Under the pieces are notes generated by a model, which had not been told where the DNA came from, searched no databases, and worked only from the letters and a program-made list of their open reading frames with translations. DNA of 64,000 nucleotides, taken from positions 93,163-157,162 of the forward strand of contig JAEUHN010000036.1 in assembly GCA_016795365.1 (NCBI GenBank), in the 5' to 3' direction. The position numbers and the translations under genes are program-made. Of this stretch, positions 27,188 to 41,994 are shown piece after piece; positions within the stretch are counted from its first letter, which is position 1; the number at the start of each line of letters is the position of its first letter. Source of the stretch: Verrucomicrobiaceae bacterium (GTDB taxonomy: Bacteria; Verrucomicrobiota; Verrucomicrobiia; Verrucomicrobiales; Verrucomicrobiaceae).

Positions 27188-30094
<2,907 letters not shown>

Positions 30095-30302: not shown

Positions 30303-30968
30303 ATGACAGAACTCGTCTCAGAAGCCATCGCTCTGCACAACCTGCCAGCCACTCTGCTGCTCGGATTGATCGTGGGTTACTGGCTCCTCGTTCTCCTGGG
30401 CGTCGCGGACTCCGACACGGAGCCGATGGACCTTAATGGAGATGGCATTCCCGATGTATCCGGCTCACCCAATGGACTGTGGCCGACCTGCGGCCGCTTC
30501 CTTTACCTCGGGCAGGTGCCGCTCATGATTGTGGTGAGTTTTCTTGCCGTCAGCATGTGGATGATTTCGATGATCTCGAACTACTACTTCAACGGCCTGC
30601 CCGGACATCGCAGCGCGGGCGTGGCGGTGCTGCTGCTGATTCCCAATGTGCTCGTCAGCCTCGTCCTCACCCGCATCGCCGCAGCCCCGTTCCGCAAGCT
30701 TTTCAGCGCCATGGACAAGGCCTCCACCGAAGGCGAGACCGTGATCGACCGCGAGGCGATCGTCACGAGCGCGCAGGTCGATGATCGCTACGGCCAAGTT
30801 GCCATCGTCACGGGTGCCGCCCCGTTGCTGGTCAACGCACGCACGGCCCCGGGTGATCCGGTATTGATCAAAGGCACCACTGTCCGCATCACCAGCGCCG
30901 GAGCCGATCACGCCTTCTATTTCGTCGAACCCACTCCATCCCTCACCCCAACCACCAGCCAACCATGA
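30303..30968 (+). CDS. YqiJ/NfeD-like inner-membrane protein (flotillin-operon partner; N-terminal TM helices plus a C-terminal OB-fold-like beta domain)
   Basis: Architecture and scattered similarity to E. coli YqiJ: a TM helix pair (LPATLLLGLIVGYWLLVLLG; LMIVVSFLAVSMWMISMI) and a C-terminal soluble beta domain (QVAIVTGAAPLLVNARTAPGDPVLIKGTTVRITSAGADHAFYFVEP). Its stop overlaps the next start in an ATGA. Confidence 0.6.
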   Translation: MTELVSEAIALHNLPATLLLGLIVGYWLLVLLGVADSDTEPMDLNGDGIPDVSGSPNGLWPTCGRFLYLGQVPLMIVVSFLAVSMWMISMISNYYFNGLPGHRSAGVAVLLLIPNVLVSLVLTRIAAAPFRKLFSAMDKASTEGETVIDREAIVTSAQVDDRYGQVAIVTGAAPLLVNARTAPGDPVLIKGTTVRITSAGADHAFYFVEPTPSLTPTTSQP

Positions 30969-33037
30969 GTCCGCCCATCCTAGCCTTCGTCCCTGAAACC
31001 TTTCTTGTCGGCGGTGCCGTCATCGTCGCCATCGCCTTCGGCATCGTCATCATGTTCTCGCGCTTCTACCGAAAGGTGCAGCAAGGCCAGGCCATCGTGA
31101 GGAACGGCGTCGGCGGGACCAAAGTCTCGTTCAACGGCATGGTCGTCGTGCCGGTGGTTCATCAGATTGAGCACATGGACATCTCCGTGAAGCGCATCGA
31201 GATCGAGCGCCAAGGCGCTGAAGGATTGATCTGCAAGGACAACATCCGCGCCGACATCAAGGTGGCCTTCTTCGTCCGCGTGAACAAAACCGACCCAGAC
31301 GTGCTGCGTGTTGCGCAGTCCATCGGATGCCAGCGCGCGAGCAGCGTGGACATGATCCGCGTGCTGTTCGATGCGAAGTTCTCCGAAGCGCTCAAGACCG
31401 TGGGCAAGCGCTTCGACTTCGTGCAGCTCTACAATGAGCGCGATCACTTCAAAGATGAGATCCTCAAAGTGATCGGCACCGATCTCAACGGCTTCGCCCT
31501 CGACGATTGCGCCATCGACTTCCTGGAGCAGACCGCTTTGGAAAACCTAGATCCCGACAACATCCTCGACGCCGAAGGCATCAAGAAGATCACCGAACTC
31601 ACCGCCGCACAGGCCAAGCTGGCGAACAACATCCAGCGCGATAAGGAACAGGTCATCAAGAAGCAGGACGTGCAGGCCCGCGAAGCGATCCTGGAACTCG
31701 AGCGCCAGCTCGCCGAGACCGAGGCCAAGCAGAAGCGCGACGTGGAAAGCGTGAAGGCACGCGAAACCGCCGAGATGATGAAAGTGCAGGAAGAAGAGCG
31801 TCTCAAAGCCGAGCGCGCGAAGATCGCCGCCGACGAAGAGATCGCCGTCGCCACGCAGAACAAGGACCGCCAGGTGCTCGTTGCCCAGCGCAACAAGGAG
31901 CGCACCGACGCCGTGGAAGTCGAGCGCGTCACCCGCGACCGCGACCTGGAGATCATCGAGCGCGAGCGCGTCACCACCTTGAAGGGCATCGAGAAGGAGA
32001 AGGCCGTCGAAGTGGAGAAGAAGAACATCCAGGAGGTCATCAAGGAGCGCGTCGCTCTGGAGAAGACCGTCGTTGTCGAGCAGCAAAAGATGAAGGACAC
32101 CGAAGCCTTCGCCACCGCCGATCGCGAGAAGCAAGTCGCCCTTACCAACGCGGAGAAGAACGCGCAGGAACAGTTGATCCAGAAGATCAAAGAAGCCGAG
32201 GCCGCGAAGCAAGCCGCCCAGCTCGCCGCCGAACAAGCCGCCTTCGCCCAGACCAAAGCCGCCGAAGCTGCGAAGCTCGCCGCTGAGCTCCACGCTCAAG
32301 AGTTGCTCACCCTTGCCGAAGCCCGCCAAGAGGCCGCTGGCAAAGATGCGACCGCCACCAAAGCACTCGCCGATGCGGAAGCCGCCAAGGCCGCCGCTCC
32401 GGGACTTGGCGAAGCGCAGGTGCTGCTCGCGAAAGCCGATGCAGTGAAGAAGCAAGGCAGTGCCGAAGCCGAGATCACGCAGCTCAAACTGGCCGCCGAA
32501 GCCGATGGCATCACCAAGAAAGCCGAGGCCATGAAGCTGCTCGAGAACGCCGGTCGCGAGCACGAGGAATTCAAGCTCAACCTCGAGAAAACCAAGGCCG
32601 TCGAACTCGCGCAAATCCATATCCAGAAGGACATCGCCGCCGCTCAGGCAGGCGTGCTCGGCGAGGCCATGAAGTCCGCGAAGATCGAAATCGTGGGCGG
32701 CGAGAGCCAGTTCTTCGACAAGATCACGCAAGCCATCGGCACCGGCCGCGCCATCGATCGCATGGTCGAAGGCAGCCGCACCTTGACCGATGTGAAGGAG
32801 ACCTTCTTCAATGGCGACCCCGACTACTTCAAGGCTCAGGTCCGAGGCCTCGTCGATCAGTTCGGTCTCACCGCCGAGGACACGAAGAACCTCACGATGA
32901 GCGCCCTGCTCATCAAGATGCTCGGCCTCAATCCCGACGAAGGCACCACCGGCAAACTCACGAGCCTCGTCGGCGCGATGGCGAGGTTCGGTCTCGCTGA
33001 CAAGCCTGCCGGTGTGCTGCTGGGCGGGAAGAAGTGA
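30965..33037 (+). CDS. yqiK: YqiK-type flotillin (SPFH domain plus a long Ala/Glu/Lys-rich coiled-coil)
   Basis: FSRFYRKVQQGQAIVRNGVGGTKVSFNGMVVVPVVHQIEHMDISVKRIEIERQ...KVAFFVRVNKTDPDVLRVAQSIG aligns closely with E. coli YqiK. It is followed by ~300 aa of coiled-coil with AEAAK-type repeats. ATGA overlap with the upstream gene. Confidence 0.85.
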   Translation: MSPPILAFVPETFLVGGAVIVAIAFGIVIMFSRFYRKVQQGQAIVRNGVGGTKVSFNGMVVVPVVHQIEHMDISVKRIEIERQGAEGLICKDNIRADIKVAFFVRVNKTDPDVLRVAQSIGCQRASSVDMIRVLFDAKFSEALKTVGKRFDFVQLYNERDHFKDEILKVIGTDLNGFALDDCAIDFLEQTALENLDPDNILDAEGIKKITELTAAQAKLANNIQRDKEQVIKKQDVQAREAILELERQLAETEAKQKRDVESVKARETAEMMKVQEEERLKAERAKIAADEEIAVATQNKDRQVLVAQRNKERTDAVEVERVTRDRDLEIIERERVTTLKGIEKEKAVEVEKKNIQEVIKERVALEKTVVVEQQKMKDTEAFATADREKQVALTNAEKNAQEQLIQKIKEAEAAKQAAQLAAEQAAFAQTKAAEAAKLAAELHAQELLTLAEARQEAAGKDATATKALADAEAAKAAAPGLGEAQVLLAKADAVKKQGSAEAEITQLKLAAEADGITKKAEAMKLLENAGREHEEFKLNLEKTKAVELAQIHIQKDIAAAQAGVLGEAMKSAKIEIVGGESQFFDKITQAIGTGRAIDRMVEGSRTLTDVKETFFNGDPDYFKAQVRGLVDQFGLTAEDTKNLTMSALLIKMLGLNPDEGTTGKLTSLVGAMARFGLADKPAGVLLGGKK

Positions 33038-33063: not shown

Positions 33064-36000
33064 ATGCCTGACACTCCCACAACGCCGCCTCCTTCCCAGC
33101 TCGAAGCGGGAGCCTACGAGGTCATTCGTGCGCGGCTGGACAAGCATGCGAGCGAACTACGCCGTCGGCTGGAGCTGCTGAATGCGGATCGCAAAGAGCT
33201 GTTCGGCGGCATTGAGACGGCATTGGCGGCCACGGTTCGCCTCACGACGGAGAACAACTGCGTGCCGCGCGATCTCGCGGCCATTGGACCTAAGCGGTTT
33301 GTCTTCGGCTACAATGTGCATCTCGGGCTGCGCTCGCAGATGCAGGTGGCGGATGTTTTTGCGGTCTATGACTACCACGCAGAGGATCACTCCTTCCATC
33401 CGAACAAGAATGGCCTGCTCGCCGATCCGAAGTTCACGGAAGACTTCGATTACCTGTATCGCTACTACAAGTCGGCCACGTTCCTGAAGTTCCATCGCAT
33501 CGGTCCCCATCTCTACATGGGCATGTCGGTAGGTCGTGATGTGGCGGAGGTGAAGGCCTTCAAATGGCTGGTCAATGACGAGACCGGCACGCTGCAATAC
33601 CTGGGCAATCGCTTCGATCACGAGTTCGTCTTTCCTGCGGCGCAGGAGTTCGAGTGGAAGCGCGCACGCCGCGAGATGTATCGCCACGGCGAGCATCCGC
33701 ATGTCTCGATCGAGGACCGTGTGTTCGTCGAGACCATCGGCGGCGATCTAACGATCAAGGTGGAGAACAACACCGACAGCGGCAAAGGCATCTACTCCGA
33801 GCCGGTCGAGAATAAGGATCAAACACTGGACGATGCCGAGATCCACTACGCAATCATTGGCAATCTCATCCTGCTCAAGGTGCTGCCGTATCAGGAGAAA
33901 GCGTATCGTTACCTCGTCTTCAACGAGCGCACCCAGGACGTGCGGCGCATGGATGCCATCGCCGAATCCTGCGTGCTGCTGCCCGATGATCACGGTGTCA
34001 TCTTCCCGCGCGGCTACGTGCTGCAAACCGGTGAAGTGAAGACCTTTGAGACAGGTCTGGAAAACATGCGCTTCGAGCGTCGCATCGCATCGGCCAATGG
34101 CGAGGACACGCTCTTCATCTTCCACAATCTCTCGACCGGTGCCTACCTGTTGTTCGCCTACAATCTGATCGAGCAAAGCGTGGGCACACCGCTGATCTGC
34201 AACGGATTCAGCCTCTTCCCCACGGGCGAGCTGACCTTGTTCCAAGGCGATCCCGAGCCGCGCAAGCATCACGTCATCCAGGTCTGGCGCACGCCGTTCC
34301 TGAGCGACGCAGTGTCGCAGGCGCAGCAAAAGGACACCTTCCTCGCAAAGATCGGCAATGCCGACATCGTGCGCTGCATGGCAGAGTGCCGTGGCGTGCT
34401 CACGCTGCTCGCGAAGGAGGACACGTTCAGCGGCTTGTATGTCGAACTGTCACGACGCGCGGGCGACATCGCGGACAGTTACTTTTGGATCGACAAAGGC
34501 GAGGCCCACGACCTGAAGTCGGCGCTCGTCGAGATCAAAGGCGCGGCTGAGGCAGCGCTAGGCGAGTTCGAAAAGGTGCGCCGCATGAGGAAAGCGGCGA
34601 AGGACCAAACGGAAGGGCTGCGCACGAAGACGTCCAAGGCACTCAACGAAGCCAGCGGCTCGGATGCAAATGACATCCTCGGCTTCGTGAAGCACCTAAC
34701 AACGTTGCGCGAGCTACGAGGCCAGATCCTCGCGGCGCGTGATGTGCGCTACGTCGTGCTCGATGATCTCGCAGCGATGGAGAAGTCCGTCGTCGAGGGC
34801 ACGGACCGCCTGAGCCAGCACTGCATCACCTTCCTGCTGAAGCCGGAGGCGCTTGACCCGTATCGCAAGCAAGTCGCCGAGCAGAAGGCCCGCATCGATC
34901 AAGTCAAGAAGGTCGCGGAGGCCAATGAGGTGGAGCAGGCACTGACGCAATCCGGCACCGAACTGGAGATGCTGATCAGTGTGGTGAGCGGCCTGAAGAT
35001 TGGGGATGCCACCGAGACCACGCGCATCATCGAGAGCATCTCCGAGTTGTATGCGCAGCTCAATCAAGTGCGCTCGGTGCTCCGGAACAAGCGCAACGAC
35101 CTCGCTAAGGCGGAAGGCTCTGCCGAGTTCCAGGCGCAGCTAAGCTTGCTCAATCAGAGCGTGCAGAACTACCTGGAAGTCGCCAGCACGCCAGAGAAGT
35201 GCGACGAAGCACTGACGCGTGTGATGGTGCAGGTGGAGGAAGTCGAAGGACGCTTCTCGGAGTTCGATGACTTCACCGTGCAGCTCAGCACGAAGCGCGA
35301 AGAGATATACTCCGCCTTCCAGACACGTCGGCAAAGCCTGGTCGAAACGCGCAACAAGCGCTGCCAGTCGCTCGGACAATCGGCGGAGCGGATCCTGGCG
35401 AGCCTGCGCAATCGCGTGGTGAGCTTCGCCAAGCCGGAGGAAGTTCACGCCCACCTCGCCTCCGATGTGATGGCGGCGAAGCTGCGCGACCTCATCGAAG
35501 AGCTGCGCGGCCTGGGCGACAGCGTGCGCGCGGATGAGCTGGGCACGCGCTTCAAGACCTTGCACGAGGACGCCTTGAAGCAGATTCGCGACAAAGCGGA
35601 ACTGTTCTCCGAAGGCGGTGATCTCATTCAGCTCGGCAGGCACAAGTTCACCGTCAATCGCCAGCCGTTGGAACTGACCATTCTGCCACACGATGGCGGC
35701 TTGTTTTATCACCTCACGGGCACGCGGTTCTTTGAGAAACTGGAGCATCCCGATCTCGATGCGTTGCGCACGGTCTGGGAGCAGAGCGTCGTGTCCGAGG
35801 ATGCGACGGTCTATCGTGGGGAGTTCCTGGCCTGGCGTTTCCTTCAGTCCCTTCAGCACGACGACGCAGCGCTCGCGGCTTTCGAAACCTCATCGCCCGA
35901 GACCAAGACCGAACGGCTGCGCGAGTTCATGCACCAGCGTTACAGCGAAGGCTACACCAAGGGCGTGCATGACCATGATGCTGCATTGATCGCCGGTGCG

Positions 36001-38115
36001 CTGGTGCAGATGCATCGTGCGCTGGGCTTGCTGAAGCACTCGCCTGCGGCACGCGCGGAAGCGTTGGTCGCGTGGCATTGCTGGGCTGACAGCGCCGAGA
36101 AGACGGCGTTCCAAGCAGCGATGATGGCGCGGGGTCGGATGGGGTTGCAGGTTGGCGCGGTTCGTGAACAACCCGTGCCTGCCTTGGAAAACCCTGCCGG
36201 AGTTCAGGCCTTGCTTGATGAGCTGCGTGCCTTGTCCGCGAAGCATCCGCAATTGCCTTTCACGCGCTCGTTCGAGGCGGTGGAGTTGCTGCGTTCCTTC
36301 AAGAAGACGCTCACGGCCAAGCGCATGACCGCCGACTTCGATGCCGCGATGGAAGCGCTGAAGTCGCAGCCACGCACGCAGTATCAGATCATCTTCGAGT
36401 GGCTGCGCGCCACGCATCCCGAAGCAGGCGAAGGCATTGCCCGAGAGGCCGCGGCCTTGATTTTGATGAATGATCAGCCACCCGCGACACTGCCCACACC
36501 GCCGCCGTCCAAGGCCACGATCACAGGCTTGACCGGTGCCTACGCACGCATCGCAGACGGCGCACTGGCGCTCGATTACCATGAGTTCACCGCGCGTTTG
36601 TCACACTACGACGCCACCGTGGTGCCCGCGTTTGAGGCCTTCACGAAGCTGAAGCACGACCTCGGTGAGCAGAAGCGCAAGGCGCTGCGTTTGCACGAAT
36701 TCAAAGCTAGCGTGCTCAGCTCCTTCGTGCGCAATCGCTTGCTCGATCAGGTGTATCTGCCGGTCATCGGCGCGAACCTCGCGAAGCAACTCGGGGCCGC
36801 TGGCGATCAGACGCGCACGGATCGCATGGGCTTGCTGATGCTCATTTCGCCACCCGGCTACGGCAAGACGACGCTGATGGAGTATGTCGCAAACCGACTG
36901 GGCATCACCTTCGTGAAGATCAATGGTCCGGCCATCGGGCATCGCGTGACTTCGCTCGATCCGGCGGAGGCGCCGAACGCCAGTGCGCGTGAGGAAGTGG
37001 AGAAGCTCAACCTCGCGTTCGAGATGGGTGACAACGTCATCATTTACGTGGATGACATTCAGCACACGAACCCGGAGTTCCTGCAAAAATTCATCTCGCT
37101 CTGCGATGGCTCGCGCAAGATCGAAGGTGTCTTCAAGGGCGTCGCGCGCACCTATGATTTGCGTGGTCGCAAGGTCGCCGTGGTGATGGCGGGCAATCCC
37201 TACACCGAGGTCGGTGGCAAGTTCCAGGTGCCCGACATGCTCGCCAATCGAGCAGACACTTACAACCTGGGCGACATCCTCGGCGGCCACGAAGCGGCAT
37301 TCAAAGACAGCTACATCGAAAACGCACTGACCAGCAATGCCACGCTGGCGAAGATCGCAGCGCGCAGTCACAAGGACGCGCTCACCGTTTTGCAGATCGC
37401 TCAGACCGGCAGCCGCGAGGGCGTTGAGTTCGAGGGCAACTTCGGCGCGGATGAGATCAACGAAGCCGTGGCCGTGATGGAGCGACTGCTGCGCATTCGC
37501 GAAGTGATCCTTCGTGTGAACCAAGAATACATCCGCAGCGCCGCGCAGGAGGACGCGTATCGCACTGAGCCACCGTTCAAGCTGCAAGGCAGCTATCGCA
37601 ACATGAACCGCATCGCCGAGAAGGTGCTGCCGCTCATGACCGAGGCCGAGGTGCAGTCGCTCATCGAAGATCACTATCGCGGCGAGTCGCAAACGCTGAG
37701 CCAGGCCGCCGAAGCCAACCTGCTCAAGTGGCGCGAGATCAACAACTTGCTCGATGAAGCCGGAGCCAAGCGCTGGGAGGAAATCAAGCGCACCTTTGGC
37801 CGCAACCTGCTCACGGGCGGCGGTGGCGACAATGATCCCATCAGCCGCATCACAGGCCAGATGAATGCCTTCAACGCGGGCCTGGAGAAGATCAGCGACG
37901 CCGTTTCGAAGCCCACGCTCAGCGATGCGACCATGGTCAGCTTGCAGAAGATCATCGACGGCCTGCGCGCCGTGCCGGTGAATGTGGAGATCAAGGTGAT
38001 CCCCGTTGAACCCCTGGCGAACGATCCCGACATGCTCGTGGGCATTCAGAGCGATGTGGTCCAAGGCGACCCCGCACCCGCGCCATCGAAGAAACGCAAA
38101 CCCACCCAGTCATGA
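33064..38115 (+). CDS. Giant (1683 aa) uncharacterised protein with an N-terminal beta-rich region, central coiled-coil/helical region and a C-terminal MoxR/AAA_5-like AAA+ ATPase domain
   Basis: Walker A LMLISPPGYGKTTLMEYV (~aa 1260). Walker B VIIYVDDIQHTNPEFLQKF. MoxR-like sensor region VAVVMAGNPYTEVGGKFQVPDMLANRADTY. No VWA, nuclease or known defence-domain signatures recognised. Starts 26 bp after yqiK. Its stop overlaps the next gene's start (ATGA at 38112-38115). Confidence 0.8.
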   Translation: MPDTPTTPPPSQLEAGAYEVIRARLDKHASELRRRLELLNADRKELFGGIETALAATVRLTTENNCVPRDLAAIGPKRFVFGYNVHLGLRSQMQVADVFAVYDYHAEDHSFHPNKNGLLADPKFTEDFDYLYRYYKSATFLKFHRIGPHLYMGMSVGRDVAEVKAFKWLVNDETGTLQYLGNRFDHEFVFPAAQEFEWKRARREMYRHGEHPHVSIEDRVFVETIGGDLTIKVENNTDSGKGIYSEPVENKDQTLDDAEIHYAIIGNLILLKVLPYQEKAYRYLVFNERTQDVRRMDAIAESCVLLPDDHGVIFPRGYVLQTGEVKTFETGLENMRFERRIASANGEDTLFIFHNLSTGAYLLFAYNLIEQSVGTPLICNGFSLFPTGELTLFQGDPEPRKHHVIQVWRTPFLSDAVSQAQQKDTFLAKIGNADIVRCMAECRGVLTLLAKEDTFSGLYVELSRRAGDIADSYFWIDKGEAHDLKSALVEIKGAAEAALGEFEKVRRMRKAAKDQTEGLRTKTSKALNEASGSDANDILGFVKHLTTLRELRGQILAARDVRYVVLDDLAAMEKSVVEGTDRLSQHCITFLLKPEALDPYRKQVAEQKARIDQVKKVAEANEVEQALTQSGTELEMLISVVSGLKIGDATETTRIIESISELYAQLNQVRSVLRNKRNDLAKAEGSAEFQAQLSLLNQSVQNYLEVASTPEKCDEALTRVMVQVEEVEGRFSEFDDFTVQLSTKREEIYSAFQTRRQSLVETRNKRCQSLGQSAERILASLRNRVVSFAKPEEVHAHLASDVMAAKLRDLIEELRGLGDSVRADELGTRFKTLHEDALKQIRDKAELFSEGGDLIQLGRHKFTVNRQPLELTILPHDGGLFYHLTGTRFFEKLEHPDLDALRTVWEQSVVSEDATVYRGEFLAWRFLQSLQHDDAALAAFETSSPETKTERLREFMHQRYSEGYTKGVHDHDAALIAGALVQMHRALGLLKHSPAARAEALVAWHCWADSAEKTAFQAAMMARGRMGLQVGAVREQPVPALENPAGVQALLDELRALSAKHPQLPFTRSFEAVELLRSFKKTLTAKRMTADFDAAMEALKSQPRTQYQIIFEWLRATHPEAGEGIAREAAALILMNDQPPATLPTPPPSKATITGLTGAYARIADGALALDYHEFTARLSHYDATVVPAFEAFTKLKHDLGEQKRKALRLHEFKASVLSSFVRNRLLDQVYLPVIGANLAKQLGAAGDQTRTDRMGLLMLISPPGYGKTTLMEYVANRLGITFVKINGPAIGHRVTSLDPAEAPNASAREEVEKLNLAFEMGDNVIIYVDDIQHTNPEFLQKFISLCDGSRKIEGVFKGVARTYDLRGRKVAVVMAGNPYTEVGGKFQVPDMLANRADTYNLGDILGGHEAAFKDSYIENALTSNATLAKIAARSHKDALTVLQIAQTGSREGVEFEGNFGADEINEAVAVMERLLRIREVILRVNQEYIRSAAQEDAYRTEPPFKLQGSYRNMNRIAEKVLPLMTEAEVQSLIEDHYRGESQTLSQAAEANLLKWREINNLLDEAGAKRWEEIKRTFGRNLLTGGGGDNDPISRITGQMNAFNAGLEKISDAVSKPTLSDATMVSLQKIIDGLRAVPVNVEIKVIPVEPLANDPDMLVGIQSDVVQGDPAPAPSKKRKPTQS

Positions 38116-38873
38116 CTCCCCGTCACTCCCTCGGACCCGCGAAGCCCGAATTGTATCCCGTGCCCAAGGCCTGGGACATTCCCGAGTCGATCCGTCATCG
38201 CCTCGGTGTCGAGGCTGGACCTCAGCGCGCGATCTTCGAGGACGGACACCTCCTGGTGATCCTCCACCACATTCCCAAGCCTGATCAGACGGACCGCGTG
38301 CCTGCCTTCTTCTGGCGCAACGCCGCTGGCGAATGGCGGAGCACGGAAGGCAAAGGCATGGGACCCGTCGCCTTGCAGAACTTCTTGGATGCCTGGGAGA
38401 CGAAGCTGCAAGCGCTGGAAGTCGCCGAGCAGAAGGCCATGACCGCCACCGAGTATCACGCCCTGCTGGAGGAAGCCGGTCCCATCCTGCGCACCACGCG
38501 CGGCCTGCATCGCGCGCTGCAACAGGCCCGCGAACTGGTGAAGGACGACCGTGACCTGATCAACTTTCGCGACATCGCCGCCGGCCTGGAACGCACCGCC
38601 GAACTGCTGCTACAGGACGCGCAGTTCGGACTCAACTTCATCGCTGCTCGTCAGTCCGAGCACCAGGCCGCCATGGCCCAGCAGATGAATTCCACCGCCC
38701 ATCGGCTCAACATCATCGCCGCCCTGTTCCTGCCCGTGACCGCCATCGCCAGCATCCTGAGCATGGACATCTCCAGCGGCCTGGCCAACACACGCCCCAA
38801 CTTCTGGCTCGTGCTCGCCGCCGGCTGCCTGCTGGGCGGCAGCCTAGCAACTTGGGTGAGCCGGAGGAAGTGA
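38112..38873 (+). CDS. CorA-like two-TM membrane protein with a degenerate GMN motif (S-M-D)
   Basis: The C-terminal region (NSTAHRLNIIAALFLPVTAIASILSMDISSGLANTRPNFWLVLAAGCLLGGSLATWVSRRK) reproduces CorA topology, i.e. (N.vMK.LT..s.iflP.t.iaGiyGMNf ... TM2 ... RRK), but with SMD in place of GMN. The N-terminal ~170 aa is a helical cytoplasmic domain. Translationally coupled to the giant ATPase gene. Confidence 0.55.
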   Translation: MTPRHSLGPAKPELYPVPKAWDIPESIRHRLGVEAGPQRAIFEDGHLLVILHHIPKPDQTDRVPAFFWRNAAGEWRSTEGKGMGPVALQNFLDAWETKLQALEVAEQKAMTATEYHALLEEAGPILRTTRGLHRALQQARELVKDDRDLINFRDIAAGLERTAELLLQDAQFGLNFIAARQSEHQAAMAQQMNSTAHRLNIIAALFLPVTAIASILSMDISSGLANTRPNFWLVLAAGCLLGGSLATWVSRRK

Positions 38874-39456: not shown

Positions 39457-41994
39457 ATGCGCAACGCTTTGCTTTTCGTTCTTCTCAGCACGCTGGCAGT
39501 TCATGCGGAGATCGAGGTCACGCTCGAACTCGGCACGCCGGTGGCGAATCTCCAACTCGCTCGCGATGCCGTGCGGGCGAAGCGCAAAGCGGGCGAGAAG
39601 GGCCATGCGACGATCTGGGTGGAGGGCGGCACTTACTTGCAGCGCGAGGTGGTGACCTTTGATGCACAAGACTCGGATCTCACCATTCGCGGGGTCAATG
39701 AGGCGACGATTCAGTTCATTGGCGCGCCAGTGGTGACGGGGTTCACGAAGCACGAGGGGAGCATCGTGAAGGCGGATGTGTCGGCCTTGATCAAGAAGGG
39801 CGCGAAGTATCGTCAGGTGCTGAGCGACGGTGAGAGAATGATTCTGGCACGCTGGCCGAACTTTGATGCGAAGAACCCGCTCTACGGCGGCTGGGCTTTT
39901 CTTGACGCGATTCCAAAGGCGGTGATCGAGCAGCATCAGTGGAAGCAGGAAGGCTATCTGAAAGAGCAGGACGTCCGCACTTGGGCGCATCCGGAGGATG
40001 TGGAGATCGACATCTTCGCGCAATACGGCTGGTGGAATTTCATCGAGCCCGTGCAGACCATCGACACGGCCTCGCGCAAGCTGACGCTGGCGAAGAAGTG
40101 CAGCTACGACCTGCACCCGCACAATCGCTTTCACTTCCAGAACGCGCTCGAAGAACTCGATGCACCCGGCGAATGGTATCTCGATCCGCGCACGAGCACG
40201 CTCTACGTGTGGCCGACGAAGGAGAAGAGTGACGTGCGATTGGTGACGCTCGATAGCTTCATCAAGCTGAACGCGGACGCGAAGAACATCAGCATCGAGA
40301 AGCTGTCCTTCACCGGCTGCAATGCGACCGCCGTGACGATGACGAATACGAAGAACTGCCGCGTGGCAGGTTGCACCTTCGTGAACATCGGTGGCTTCAC
40401 CGGCAGTGCGATTGGCATCAGTGGTGGCAATGATAACGCGGCGATCAGCAACGACATCAGCTACACAGGCAGCAATGGGATCAGCCTCAGCGGTGGTGAC
40501 CGGATCACTCTGACGGCTTGCAACAACAGGGCACACAACAACCACATCCATCACTTCGGTGTCTTCAACAAGAACGCCTGCGGTGTGGGCGCGACGGGTT
40601 GCGGCATCACCATCTCGCACAACCTCATCCACGACGGTCCACGCATGGCGGTGCAGATGAGCGGCAACAACATCATCGTGGAATACAACCACATGCACCA
40701 CGTGATGCTGGAGACACAGGACGGTGGCGCGATCTACACCGGCGGTCGCGACTGGATCAGCTCGCGCGGCAGTGTGTGGCGCTACAATCGCATCCACGAC
40801 ATCATCGGTGTGGGCCAGGAGGCCGATGGCTTGAAGCATCCGTGGTTCAGCTTCGGCCTCTACCCGGACGACAACACGGGTGGCGTCGATATGATCGGCA
40901 ACCTCGTTTATCGCTGCGAGTGGACGCCGATCCACATGCACAACTCACGCGACTGCATCGTGGAGAACAACATTTTCGCCTTCGGCAACAAGTTCCAGTT
41001 CGACCTGCATGGCTGGACCAAGGACCAGCACTACTGGATCGATCACGGCCCGACGATGGTGAAGGGTTGGGAGTCGGTGAAGGATCAGCCCGCATGGAAA
41101 GGGATGCGCGGCATGGAACTCGATCCGCGCAAGGCCTTCCGCGAAGACGGCACGATGATGAGCGGCGATGTAGTGCAGCGAAACATCATGTATTCCAACA
41201 CGCCGGGCGTGAAGTATGGCGACCTGCGCAACGTGTCGCCGAAGTGGAACACGATTGATTACAACCTCGCGTGGAACGGCGGCCATCCGGTGATGACGGG
41301 TCTCAATGCAGTGGGCAAGGACATGGGCGAGCCAATTCTGGTGGAAGACTTCAGCAAGGTCGAGGCTGGCAAGACACCGAAGGGCTGGGGCTTCAATCAT
41401 CAGCCTAACAAGGCAGTGAAACTCATCGCGGTGGATGGTGCCCTGGCCGTTGATTGCGCGAAGGGTGAGGACACGAAGAACACGCACAGCGTCTTCCACA
41501 GTCCCGACATGCCCATCAAGCAGGGCTCGGCCTATCGTGTGAAGCTGCGCGTGAAGACGACCGAGCCATCGGGTCGTGTGGGCCTTGCGCTCGCCTCCTT
41601 TGAGAATGGCAAAGGCTACTGGCAGGGCGCGAGCAAGTCGGTCGCGGTCACCAACGAATGGCAGGAAGCCGAAGTCACCGGTCGCATGCCGAAGGAAGGC
41701 GAGGCGCAGTTCAAGGACTGGATGAAGACCTTCTGGCTGCGCGTGGATGCCCACGACGAGAAGGGCCGCATCCTCATCGACGACGTGCGCGTCACCGAGG
41801 CCGAGCCGATGAACGAGTGGCAGTCATGGCAAGAAGCTGGCTGGGACAGGAACAGCATCGTCGCCGATCCGCTCTTCGTCGATGCGAGCGAGGACGACTT
41901 CCGCCTGAAGCCCGAGTCCCCTGCGATCACCAAGCTCGGCTTTAAGCCGCTGCCGATCGATGAGATGGGCTTGGTGAAGGACGAGTGGAGGTGA
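39457..41994 (+). CDS. Secreted right-handed beta-helix (pectate-lyase-fold) carbohydrate-active protein with a C-terminal CBM4/9-like carbohydrate-binding module
   Basis: Signal peptide MRNALLFVLLSTLAVHA. Beta-helix rungs (NCRVAGCTFVNIGGFTGSAIGISGGNDNAAISNDISYTGSNGISLSGGD...NNHIHHFG). The C-terminal ~200 aa is a beta-sandwich-like module (AVDCAKGEDTKNTHSVF...FWLRVDAHDEKGRILIDDVRV). Confidence 0.7.
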   Translation: MRNALLFVLLSTLAVHAEIEVTLELGTPVANLQLARDAVRAKRKAGEKGHATIWVEGGTYLQREVVTFDAQDSDLTIRGVNEATIQFIGAPVVTGFTKHEGSIVKADVSALIKKGAKYRQVLSDGERMILARWPNFDAKNPLYGGWAFLDAIPKAVIEQHQWKQEGYLKEQDVRTWAHPEDVEIDIFAQYGWWNFIEPVQTIDTASRKLTLAKKCSYDLHPHNRFHFQNALEELDAPGEWYLDPRTSTLYVWPTKEKSDVRLVTLDSFIKLNADAKNISIEKLSFTGCNATAVTMTNTKNCRVAGCTFVNIGGFTGSAIGISGGNDNAAISNDISYTGSNGISLSGGDRITLTACNNRAHNNHIHHFGVFNKNACGVGATGCGITISHNLIHDGPRMAVQMSGNNIIVEYNHMHHVMLETQDGGAIYTGGRDWISSRGSVWRYNRIHDIIGVGQEADGLKHPWFSFGLYPDDNTGGVDMIGNLVYRCEWTPIHMHNSRDCIVENNIFAFGNKFQFDLHGWTKDQHYWIDHGPTMVKGWESVKDQPAWKGMRGMELDPRKAFREDGTMMSGDVVQRNIMYSNTPGVKYGDLRNVSPKWNTIDYNLAWNGGHPVMTGLNAVGKDMGEPILVEDFSKVEAGKTPKGWGFNHQPNKAVKLIAVDGALAVDCAKGEDTKNTHSVFHSPDMPIKQGSAYRVKLRVKTTEPSGRVGLALASFENGKGYWQGASKSVAVTNEWQEAEVTGRMPKEGEAQFKDWMKTFWLRVDAHDEKGRILIDDVRVTEAEPMNEWQSWQEAGWDRNSIVADPLFVDASEDDFRLKPESPAITKLGFKPLPIDEMGLVKDEWR

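Follow-up and report, generated by a model that had tools for sequence, protein, structure and literature searches.

The question raised by this locus is what role is played by a giant ATPase of 1683 amino acids (aa), encoded by a single gene (hereafter gene C) in a Verrucomicrobiaceae bacterium (assembly GCA_016795365.1, contig JAEUHN010000036.1), of which we analysed a stretch of 64,000 nucleotides (nt), referred to below as the window. Gene C is the third gene of a conserved operon, in which it is preceded by genes encoding a YqiJ/NfeD-like membrane protein (gene A) and a transmembrane (TM) protein of the SPFH/flotillin-like type (gene B). A preliminary description of this DNA had left the flotillin/YqiJ context unrecognised, and it is this context that gives gene C its likely meaning. 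We propose, with evenly divided confidence, that the ATPase may use ATP to remodel the flotillin/NfeD scaffold at the inner membrane and, where PspA is co-encoded, PspA polymers.

Gene C occupies positions 33064-38115 of the plus strand as a single open reading frame (ORF) and is identical in sequence to NCBI MBL9145214.1, a protein titled 'MAG: DNA repair ATPase [Verrucomicrobiaceae bacterium]' and located on a 256-kb contig. Since the stretch has a guanine plus cytosine content of 61% and antisense ORFs reach 487 aa across the gene C region, ORF length is no proof of the gene; that it is real follows from the existence of homologues, of which a protein search returned at least 5,625 at E<=1e-5. 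Pfam analysis identified DUF3686 (PF12458; aa 31-474, E=5e-181, 602.5 bits against a cut-off of 25, covering 448/448 of the profile), DUF7902 (PF25472; aa 595-678, E=2e-29, 102.1 bits, cut-off 26) and AAA (PF00004; aa 1259-1378). The DUF3686 domain alone retrieves 719 clusters at 50% identity among 1.84 billion representatives, and complete members of the family are 1600-1900 aa long (some reach about 1980 aa, differing mainly in the C-terminal tail), so that DUF3686 essentially always heads a giant protein of the gene C type. The family motifs PPGYGKT(T/S), DDIQH and AGNPYT...ANRAD are present in 64/65 full-length cluster representatives (62 with GKTT, 2 with GKTS). Relatives are encoded at at least 587 loci in species-representative genomes, and full-length relatives span at least six phyla, being found in Verrucomicrobiota, Planctomycetota, Bacteroidota, Desulfobacterota, Clostridia, Kiritimatiellota and Omnitrophota. 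Gene C is thus a member of the DUF3686/DUF7902/AAA+ giant ATPase family, encoding a soluble protein with neither a TM segment nor a signal peptide, and the copy itself is ordinary, one more member of a catalogued and widely distributed family. The ORF given in the preliminary description therefore stands, whereas its portrayal of the protein as an orphan does not, and nor does that of an unusual, newly seen architecture, since the family is large and defined in Pfam and its operon context was published in 2024 (PMC11237479). As an outcome that would overturn its view, the same description had named assignment of the whole protein to a well-characterised family with established function; a family assignment was found, but an established function was not.

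The search for homologues and their genomic partners that the preliminary description had recommended was carried out on the best 80 of the related loci, whose full-length similarity to gene C is 43-79%. The two genes that accompany gene C are, in the window:

30303-30968, plus strand: gene A, 221 aa, YqiJ/YuaF (DUF1449)-type membrane protein with an NfeD-like C-terminus, the first gene of the operon
30965-33037, plus strand: gene B, 690 aa: TM helix at the N-terminus, divergent SPFH/Band-7 domain, coiled coil rich in A/E/K, conserved tail at the C-terminus

Among the informative loci, meaning those whose sequence extends far enough upstream, gene B immediately precedes gene C in the same orientation in 60/62, and gene A is found upstream on the same strand in 51/58; no other conserved neighbour was found over the 80 loci. 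Genes A and B overlap by 4 nt in the window, B and C are 26 nt apart, and C overlaps the downstream gene D (see below) by 4 nt; the intergenic gaps in related loci are likewise tens of bases or overlaps. The gcvP gene lies on the opposite strand upstream of gene A, so the operon begins after gcvP. A scan of the region revealed no promoter-like site, and terminator-like sites were no more frequent than in shuffled sequence. The exact sequence of gene A is present in NCBI as MBL9145212.1, 'DUF1449 family protein', and its orthologues match PF21001 YqiJ_N in 12/29 cases and PF01957 NfeD in 4/29. The window copy of gene B has no Pfam match and no PDB sequence match of its own, and its identity is consequently drawn from orthologues (52-59% identity), among which PF01145 Band_7 is matched by 5/31 (best E=7e-14) and which carry the names flotillin family protein, YqiK and SPFH domain-containing protein; the gene B family profile also gives a weak match to the SPFH protein QmcA (8z5g). 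Judged from these sequences, gene B encodes a flotillin/YqiK-like protein.

In 13-15 Bacteroidota loci, the genes for YqiJ, flotillin and the ATPase are immediately preceded by genes encoding an HTH-S24 regulator, CesT_Tir_1 and PspA_IM30. One locus (L028) illustrates the arrangement:

L028, 3932-6063: divergent HTH_3 plus Peptidase_S24 (LexA-like) gene, CesT_Tir_1 (PF22550) gene and PspA_IM30 gene

The same arrangement is found in L035, L037, L042, L047-L049, L060, L062, L064, L068, L070, L073 and L079, and it suggests that the Bacteroidota operon is under the control of a self-cleaving repressor.

The overall fold of gene C was examined using two AlphaFold2 models, calculated from alignments of 80 diverse family members, which cover aa 1-860 (mean predicted local distance difference test score, pLDDT, 85.7) and aa 840-1683 (mean pLDDT 85.9, predicted template modelling score 0.74). 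In the models a beta-rich N-terminus leads into a helical stretch of about 700 residues, and a single AAA+ module lies towards the C-terminus. The features, all on the plus strand and with boundaries from the models unless a Pfam match is named, are as follows:

33154-34485, plus strand: DUF3686 match, aa 31-474, comprising the N-terminal helix, the propeller-like domain and the first following helices
aa 15-47, plus strand: long N-terminal helix
aa 53-409, plus strand: beta-rich domain of about seven four-stranded units
34339-35604, plus strand: helical stalk, aa 426-847, with helices of up to about 58 residues
34846-35097, plus strand: DUF7902 (Pfam) inside the stalk, aa 595-678
35623-35739, plus strand: small five-stranded beta domain, aa 854-892, GRHKFTVNRQPLEL...HLTGT, pLDDT 81-95
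35815-36465, plus strand: second helical domain, aa 918-1134, pLDDT mostly above 90
36511-36792, plus strand: beta-hairpin and 37-residue linker helix (aa 1150-1208) with pre-P-loop helix (aa 1225-1243), together aa 1150-1243
36829-37281, plus strand: AAA+ alpha/beta core, aa 1256-1406
37291-37968, plus strand: AAA+ lid and family-specific C-terminal helical domain, aa 1410-1635, pLDDT mostly above 85 to about aa 1580
37972-38112, plus strand: disordered tail, aa 1637-1683, with a basic patch (KKRKPTQS) at its end, pLDDT below 50

In the family alignment, residues G858, F862, N865, H883, G886 and T887 of the small beta domain are invariant or nearly so, the motif EGYxKGVHDxD (aa 962-972) is conserved in the second helical domain, FVRNxL...NLAKQ is invariant within the hairpin and linker region (aa 1150-1243) and the conserved motifs of the lid and C-terminal helical domain include RTEPPFKLQGSYRNMN; the tail is poorly conserved and variable in length over the family. 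The likeness of the N-terminal domain to a beta-propeller is weak. Gene C contains one P-loop domain only, and domain and profile searches found neither a VWA/MIDAS domain nor a nuclease domain in it. A relationship of the stalk to PspA, an idea arising from two homologues that JGI names 'phage shock protein A', was rejected (hhalign probability 0.1). Some Desulfobacterota and other homologues (P0309, P0315, P0349 and P0357) additionally carry ankyrin repeats, according to precomputed Pfam hits.

The ATPase itself was assessed in an alignment of 74 gene C relatives from the seven groups named above. Its key elements are:

36847-36873, plus strand: Walker A, SPPGYGKTT, aa 1262-1270, including K1268
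37039-37062, plus strand: Walker B, IIYVDDIQ, aa 1326-1333, with D1330-D1331 at 37051-37056
37117-37158, plus strand: pre-sensor-1 beta-hairpin, aa 1352-1365, between helix 3 and strand 4 of the model
37180-37263, plus strand: sensor-1 N1378 and arginine finger R1396, VVMAGNPYTEVGGKFQVPDMLANRADTY, aa 1373-1400

K1268, D1330, D1331, N1378, P1379 and R1396 are invariant in all 74 sequences, and the AAA+ region is 61-93% identical to gene C across phyla, compared with 41-82% for the N-terminal half. Because the catalytic motifs are invariant and the module is so well conserved, the comparison indicates an ATPase that is probably active and oligomerising, and under strong constraint.

Assignment of this module to a clade is less straightforward. 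The closest structural matches of the gene C ATPase are dynein, CbbQ, NorQ and midasin, and the module is of the dynein/midasin/MoxR structural type, which is a relationship of fold. Sequence alone leaves the clade ambiguous: AAA_5 (PF07728) scores 21.5 bits on full-length gene C (cut-off 22) and 25.5 bits on the excised domain, PF00004 does better at 34-38 bits, and when the isolated domain is searched in the 74 relatives both PF00004 and PF07728 exceed their cut-offs in all of them and AAA_3 does so in none. When the PDB was searched by sequence, whether with gene C itself or with profiles, p97, Cdc48 and RuvB were matched over no more than about 40 residues in the vicinity of Walker A and strand 2, which makes clade assignment from such searches impossible. 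Membership of the classical AAA clade (Cdc48/p97, Vps4, FtsH) was considered and rejected, as PF00004 did not coincide with classical topology, namely a second region of homology and no pre-sensor-1 insertion. Nor is gene C a member of the MoxR family (CbbQ, NorQ and RavA, with dynein and midasin as relatives). Proteins of that family are about 270-500 aa long, so that gene C, at 1683 aa, is around five times too long; they have a VWA/MIDAS partner gene, whereas gene C lacks one (no VWA match was detected in the six neighbouring ORFs scanned) and carries a putative propeller and stalk adaptor fused in cis; and their Walker B motif is D-E rather than D-D. Two further features are more equivocal: the gene C model has the pre-sensor-1 hairpin but shows no helix-2 beta-hairpin, the region between strand 2 and helix 2 being an 18-residue conserved loop, and PF00004 scores gene C at least as well as AAA_5 does. 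The preliminary description had placed the ATPase in the MoxR/AAA_5 (dynein-related) clade, of which the fold relationship survives and the MoxR membership does not. It had correctly located the Walker A, Walker B and NP...R regions and reported that MIDAS and nuclease motifs are lacking, and its layout of a beta-rich N-terminus, a helical middle and a C-terminal AAA+ module is borne out by the models; of the N-terminal beta-propeller or beta-sandwich that it envisaged, the beta-rich character is confirmed for aa 53-409.

How might such a protein act on the products of genes A and B? Because gene C has a conserved arginine finger and a single AAA+ module, as in other such AAA+ proteins, its product would be expected to assemble into a ring, probably a hexamer, from which the stalks and propellers would project. 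Stalk and propeller together may constitute a cis-fused adaptor that stands in for the VWA partner used by MoxR proteins, or for midasin's MIDAS domain. The propeller or the stalk would then bind the cytoplasmic flotillin/NfeD assembly, a candidate site being the conserved tail at the C-terminus of the gene B protein, and ATP hydrolysis would remodel, assemble or dismantle the flotillin/NfeD scaffold. PspA polymers may also be acted upon where the operon encodes PspA together with the CesT/Tir chaperone. Such a system could serve as a membrane-maintenance or envelope-stress machine, analogous to FtsH with its HflK/C cages or to Vps4 acting on ESCRT-III. PspA and Vipp1 are bacterial homologues of ESCRT-III. 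A more specific version, that the whole family consists of ATP-driven remodellers of bacterial flotillin cages and, where co-encoded, of PspA (bacterial ESCRT-III) polymers, forming rings of dynein/midasin-like AAA+ modules whose six stalk-and-propeller arms take hold of the scaffold to reshape or dismantle it by pulling, is offered as a speculative and rather improbable extension. If it were true, bacteria would possess a protein that does the work of Vps4 without being its homologue, and their flotillins, whose role is still debated, would have a defined regulator. The family combines strong conservation of a giant ATPase with a position that is nearly always directly 3' of a flotillin-like gene, and with PspA in Bacteroidota operons; this genomic linkage singles the family out as a concrete candidate, open to experimental test, for the part of these membrane-maintenance systems that consumes energy.

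Several considerations weigh against remodelling of the scaffold by gene C. Gene linkage is no proof of physical contact, the substrate could be client membrane proteins instead of the scaffold, and a search of the literature found no experimental study of any member of the DUF3686/DUF7902/AAA+ family. Two loci, L041 and L065, have enough upstream DNA and yet no adjacent flotillin gene. No PspA or CesT/Tir homologue was found anywhere in the window, so the PspA part of the mechanism does not apply here unless PspA is encoded elsewhere. The catalytic site also raises doubts: in all 74 sequences the acidic pair of Walker B reads D-D where D-E is usual, which makes it a family trait and not the mark of a degenerate copy, and turnover may consequently be slow, with the protein behaving less as a motor than as a nucleotide-dependent switch. 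In the sequence and the alignment, the segment that follows strand 2 (NGPAIGHxVTSLDP) shows no evident aromatic pore-loop motif, which would speak against a threading unfoldase and leave pulling of the MoxR/midasin kind as a loose fit. Taken together, the D-D Walker B and the apparent lack of an aromatic pore loop favour a device that pulls or switches slowly over a threading unfoldase.

The alternative that deserves most attention, although we consider it unlikely, is client-directed quality control, a close variant of the remodelling model in which the flotillin cage corrals client proteins, either in the membrane or near it, and the ATPase extracts, unfolds or assembles these clients and not the scaffold, as FtsH does inside HflK/C or as MoxR proteins do when they mature metalloenzymes. 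The Rubisco activase CbbQO and NorQD are chaperones for the maturation or repair of specific enzymes, and the fact that CbbQ and NorQ are the closest structural relatives of gene C speaks for such a role, while the operon evidence (gene B in 60/62 and gene A in 51/58 loci) is the same as for scaffold remodelling. However, gene C has no protease domain, no conserved client gene is present in the neighbourhood, and it lacks both the VWA/MIDAS adaptor with which MoxR proteins grip their clients and, as far as can be seen in the sequence, an aromatic pore loop.

The other two explanations have far less to recommend them. The Pfam/NCBI name implies an SMC/Rad50/RecN-like coiled-coil ATPase acting on DNA, a proposition that we find scarcely credible. 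Apart from the database label 'ATPase involved in DNA repair', it can draw on LmuB (E=1e-4) and Ppl (E=8e-3), to which gene C has weak matches at the level of the coiled coil; the AAA+ module is contiguous, in contrast to an ABC/SMC head interrupted by a coiled coil, searches for DNA-binding, nuclease or helicase domains in gene C found none, the conserved partners are membrane proteins and we found no paper tying the family to repair. The label 'DNA repair ATPase', which has spread to thousands of genomes, is without support here and is misleading. An anti-phage or conflict system, in which the giant ATPase senses infection and SPFH and CorA-like membrane proteins act as effectors of membrane-associated abortive infection, is also very unlikely. 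It would accord with the frequency of large NTPases bearing repeat-type sensor domains in defence systems, with the translational coupling of the window copy to gene D, a CorA-like membrane protein without GMN, and with the variable small genes, including an IS200 transposase, that lie between genes B and C in some loci. However, PADLOC gave no significant match for genes A, B, C and D, and NCBIfam and PADLOC together gave no meaningful family for any of the four; the high sequence conservation (44-79% over the full length, 61-93% in the AAA+ module) and stable synteny across phyla are unlike those of fast-evolving, patchily distributed defence genes; the window neighbours, gcvP and nuoD, are housekeeping genes; and the CorA-like gene is absent from 80/80 related loci.

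Remodelling of a flotillin/NfeD scaffold can be set beside systems already described. No paper on the family came up in the literature under DUF3686 or PF12458, under the label DNA repair ATPase paired with flotillin, or under MoxR paired with SPFH; the same operon has been reported from comparative genomics by Ravi et al. (2024, mSystems, PMC11237479), who list a 'Betapropeller+Coiled-coil+AAA-ATPase' protein (Table S3, Dokdonia) next to Band-7/flotillin and YqiJ/YuaF proteins, observe a wider distribution for abbreviated operons, which lack PspA, and propose chaperone-like roles in sub-membrane assembly. The window operon shares with theirs the order of propeller-like domain, helical stalk and AAA+ module as well as the YqiJ-like and TM-Band-7-flotillin partners, and corresponds to the 'abbreviated' form, membership not being excluded by the missing CesT/Tir-PspA dyad. 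It differs in having no PspA or CesT/Tir and in the lineage-specific CorA-like gene downstream, neither of which is an essential difference. That paper contains neither a structure-based clade assignment nor an experiment. SPFH proteins build cages in the membrane that work alongside AAA+ machines, HflK/C-FtsH being an example (PMC13220708), and a flotillin cage structure has been reported (PMC11260169). The coupling of HflK/C to FtsH, and that of prohibitin to m-AAA, resembles the present operon in that an SPFH membrane scaffold is genetically coupled to an AAA+ ATPase, and other SPFH operons resemble it in possessing an NfeD-type partner. FtsH, however, is a membrane-anchored protease of the classical AAA clade, whereas gene C has no TM segment, no protease domain and a different fold class. 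The Bacteroidota ATPase, being co-operonic with PspA, also recalls Vps4/CdvC acting on ESCRT-III. Since PspA shares the operon in Bacteroidota and a Vps4-like ATPase appears to be absent in bacteria according to a 2025 review (PMC7619361), the family is a candidate functional analogue of Vps4.

Downstream of gene C, the operon in the window continues with a gene of a quite different kind:

38112-38873, plus strand: gene D, a 253-aa CorA-like two-TM protein matching PF01544 (E=6.5e-11) in its C-terminal part only

The start codon (ATG) of gene D overlaps the gene C stop codon, as expected from the junction given above, and the protein has SMDISSG in the place of the GMN motif. We rejected gene D as a conserved partner, in favour of a lineage-specific addition, since the 80 related loci without it include one at 79% identity; it was found only in near-identical relatives (at least 90% identity), the 18 members of one 90% cluster, some of which share a contig with gene C copies.

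Other genes accompany the operon in particular lineages. A 160-aa protein that matches phage regulatory protein CII (PF06892) is encoded upstream of gene A in 8/80 loci (L002, at 520-1005, L008, L010, L012, L017, L027, L040 and L045) and is absent from the window. Its gene is on the opposite strand in 7/8 (on the same strand in L040), adjoins gene A in L010, L012, L017, L027 and L045 and is separated from it by several kb in L002 and L008. The protein may be a regulator specific to certain lineages. Insertions between genes B and C were observed in L024 (8612-9698), L044 (5662-6186), L076 (2478-3347) and L070 (9223-9906). The genes found there in some loci (DMP19-like, DUF3997, IS200-type transposase and esterase) are heterogeneous and were discounted as lying outside the system; the B-C junction evidently tolerates insertions. 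In one 557-aa metagenomic fragment (P0247), a part corresponding to aa 417-626 of gene B is joined to an N-terminal DUF3686 part in one ORF. This is either a rare fusion or an artefact of a frameshift or of gene calling, a single fragment being too weak to count as a fusion.

Two further observations concern the surroundings of the operon. The 5' part of gcvP, on the minus strand, contains a 66-nt tandem duplication at 29868-29993, with 60-nt copies that are 82% identical and of which the first 37 nt are identical. It repeats a 12-residue peptide near the N-terminus of the glycine dehydrogenase GcvP, and may reflect either a genuine in-frame duplication or an error of assembly. A gene at 39457-41994 (plus strand), which starts about 580 nt beyond gene D and is apparently unrelated to the operon, encodes an 845-aa right-handed beta-helix protein with GH141-insertion and CBM_4_9 matches, which is a probable secreted polysaccharide-active enzyme.

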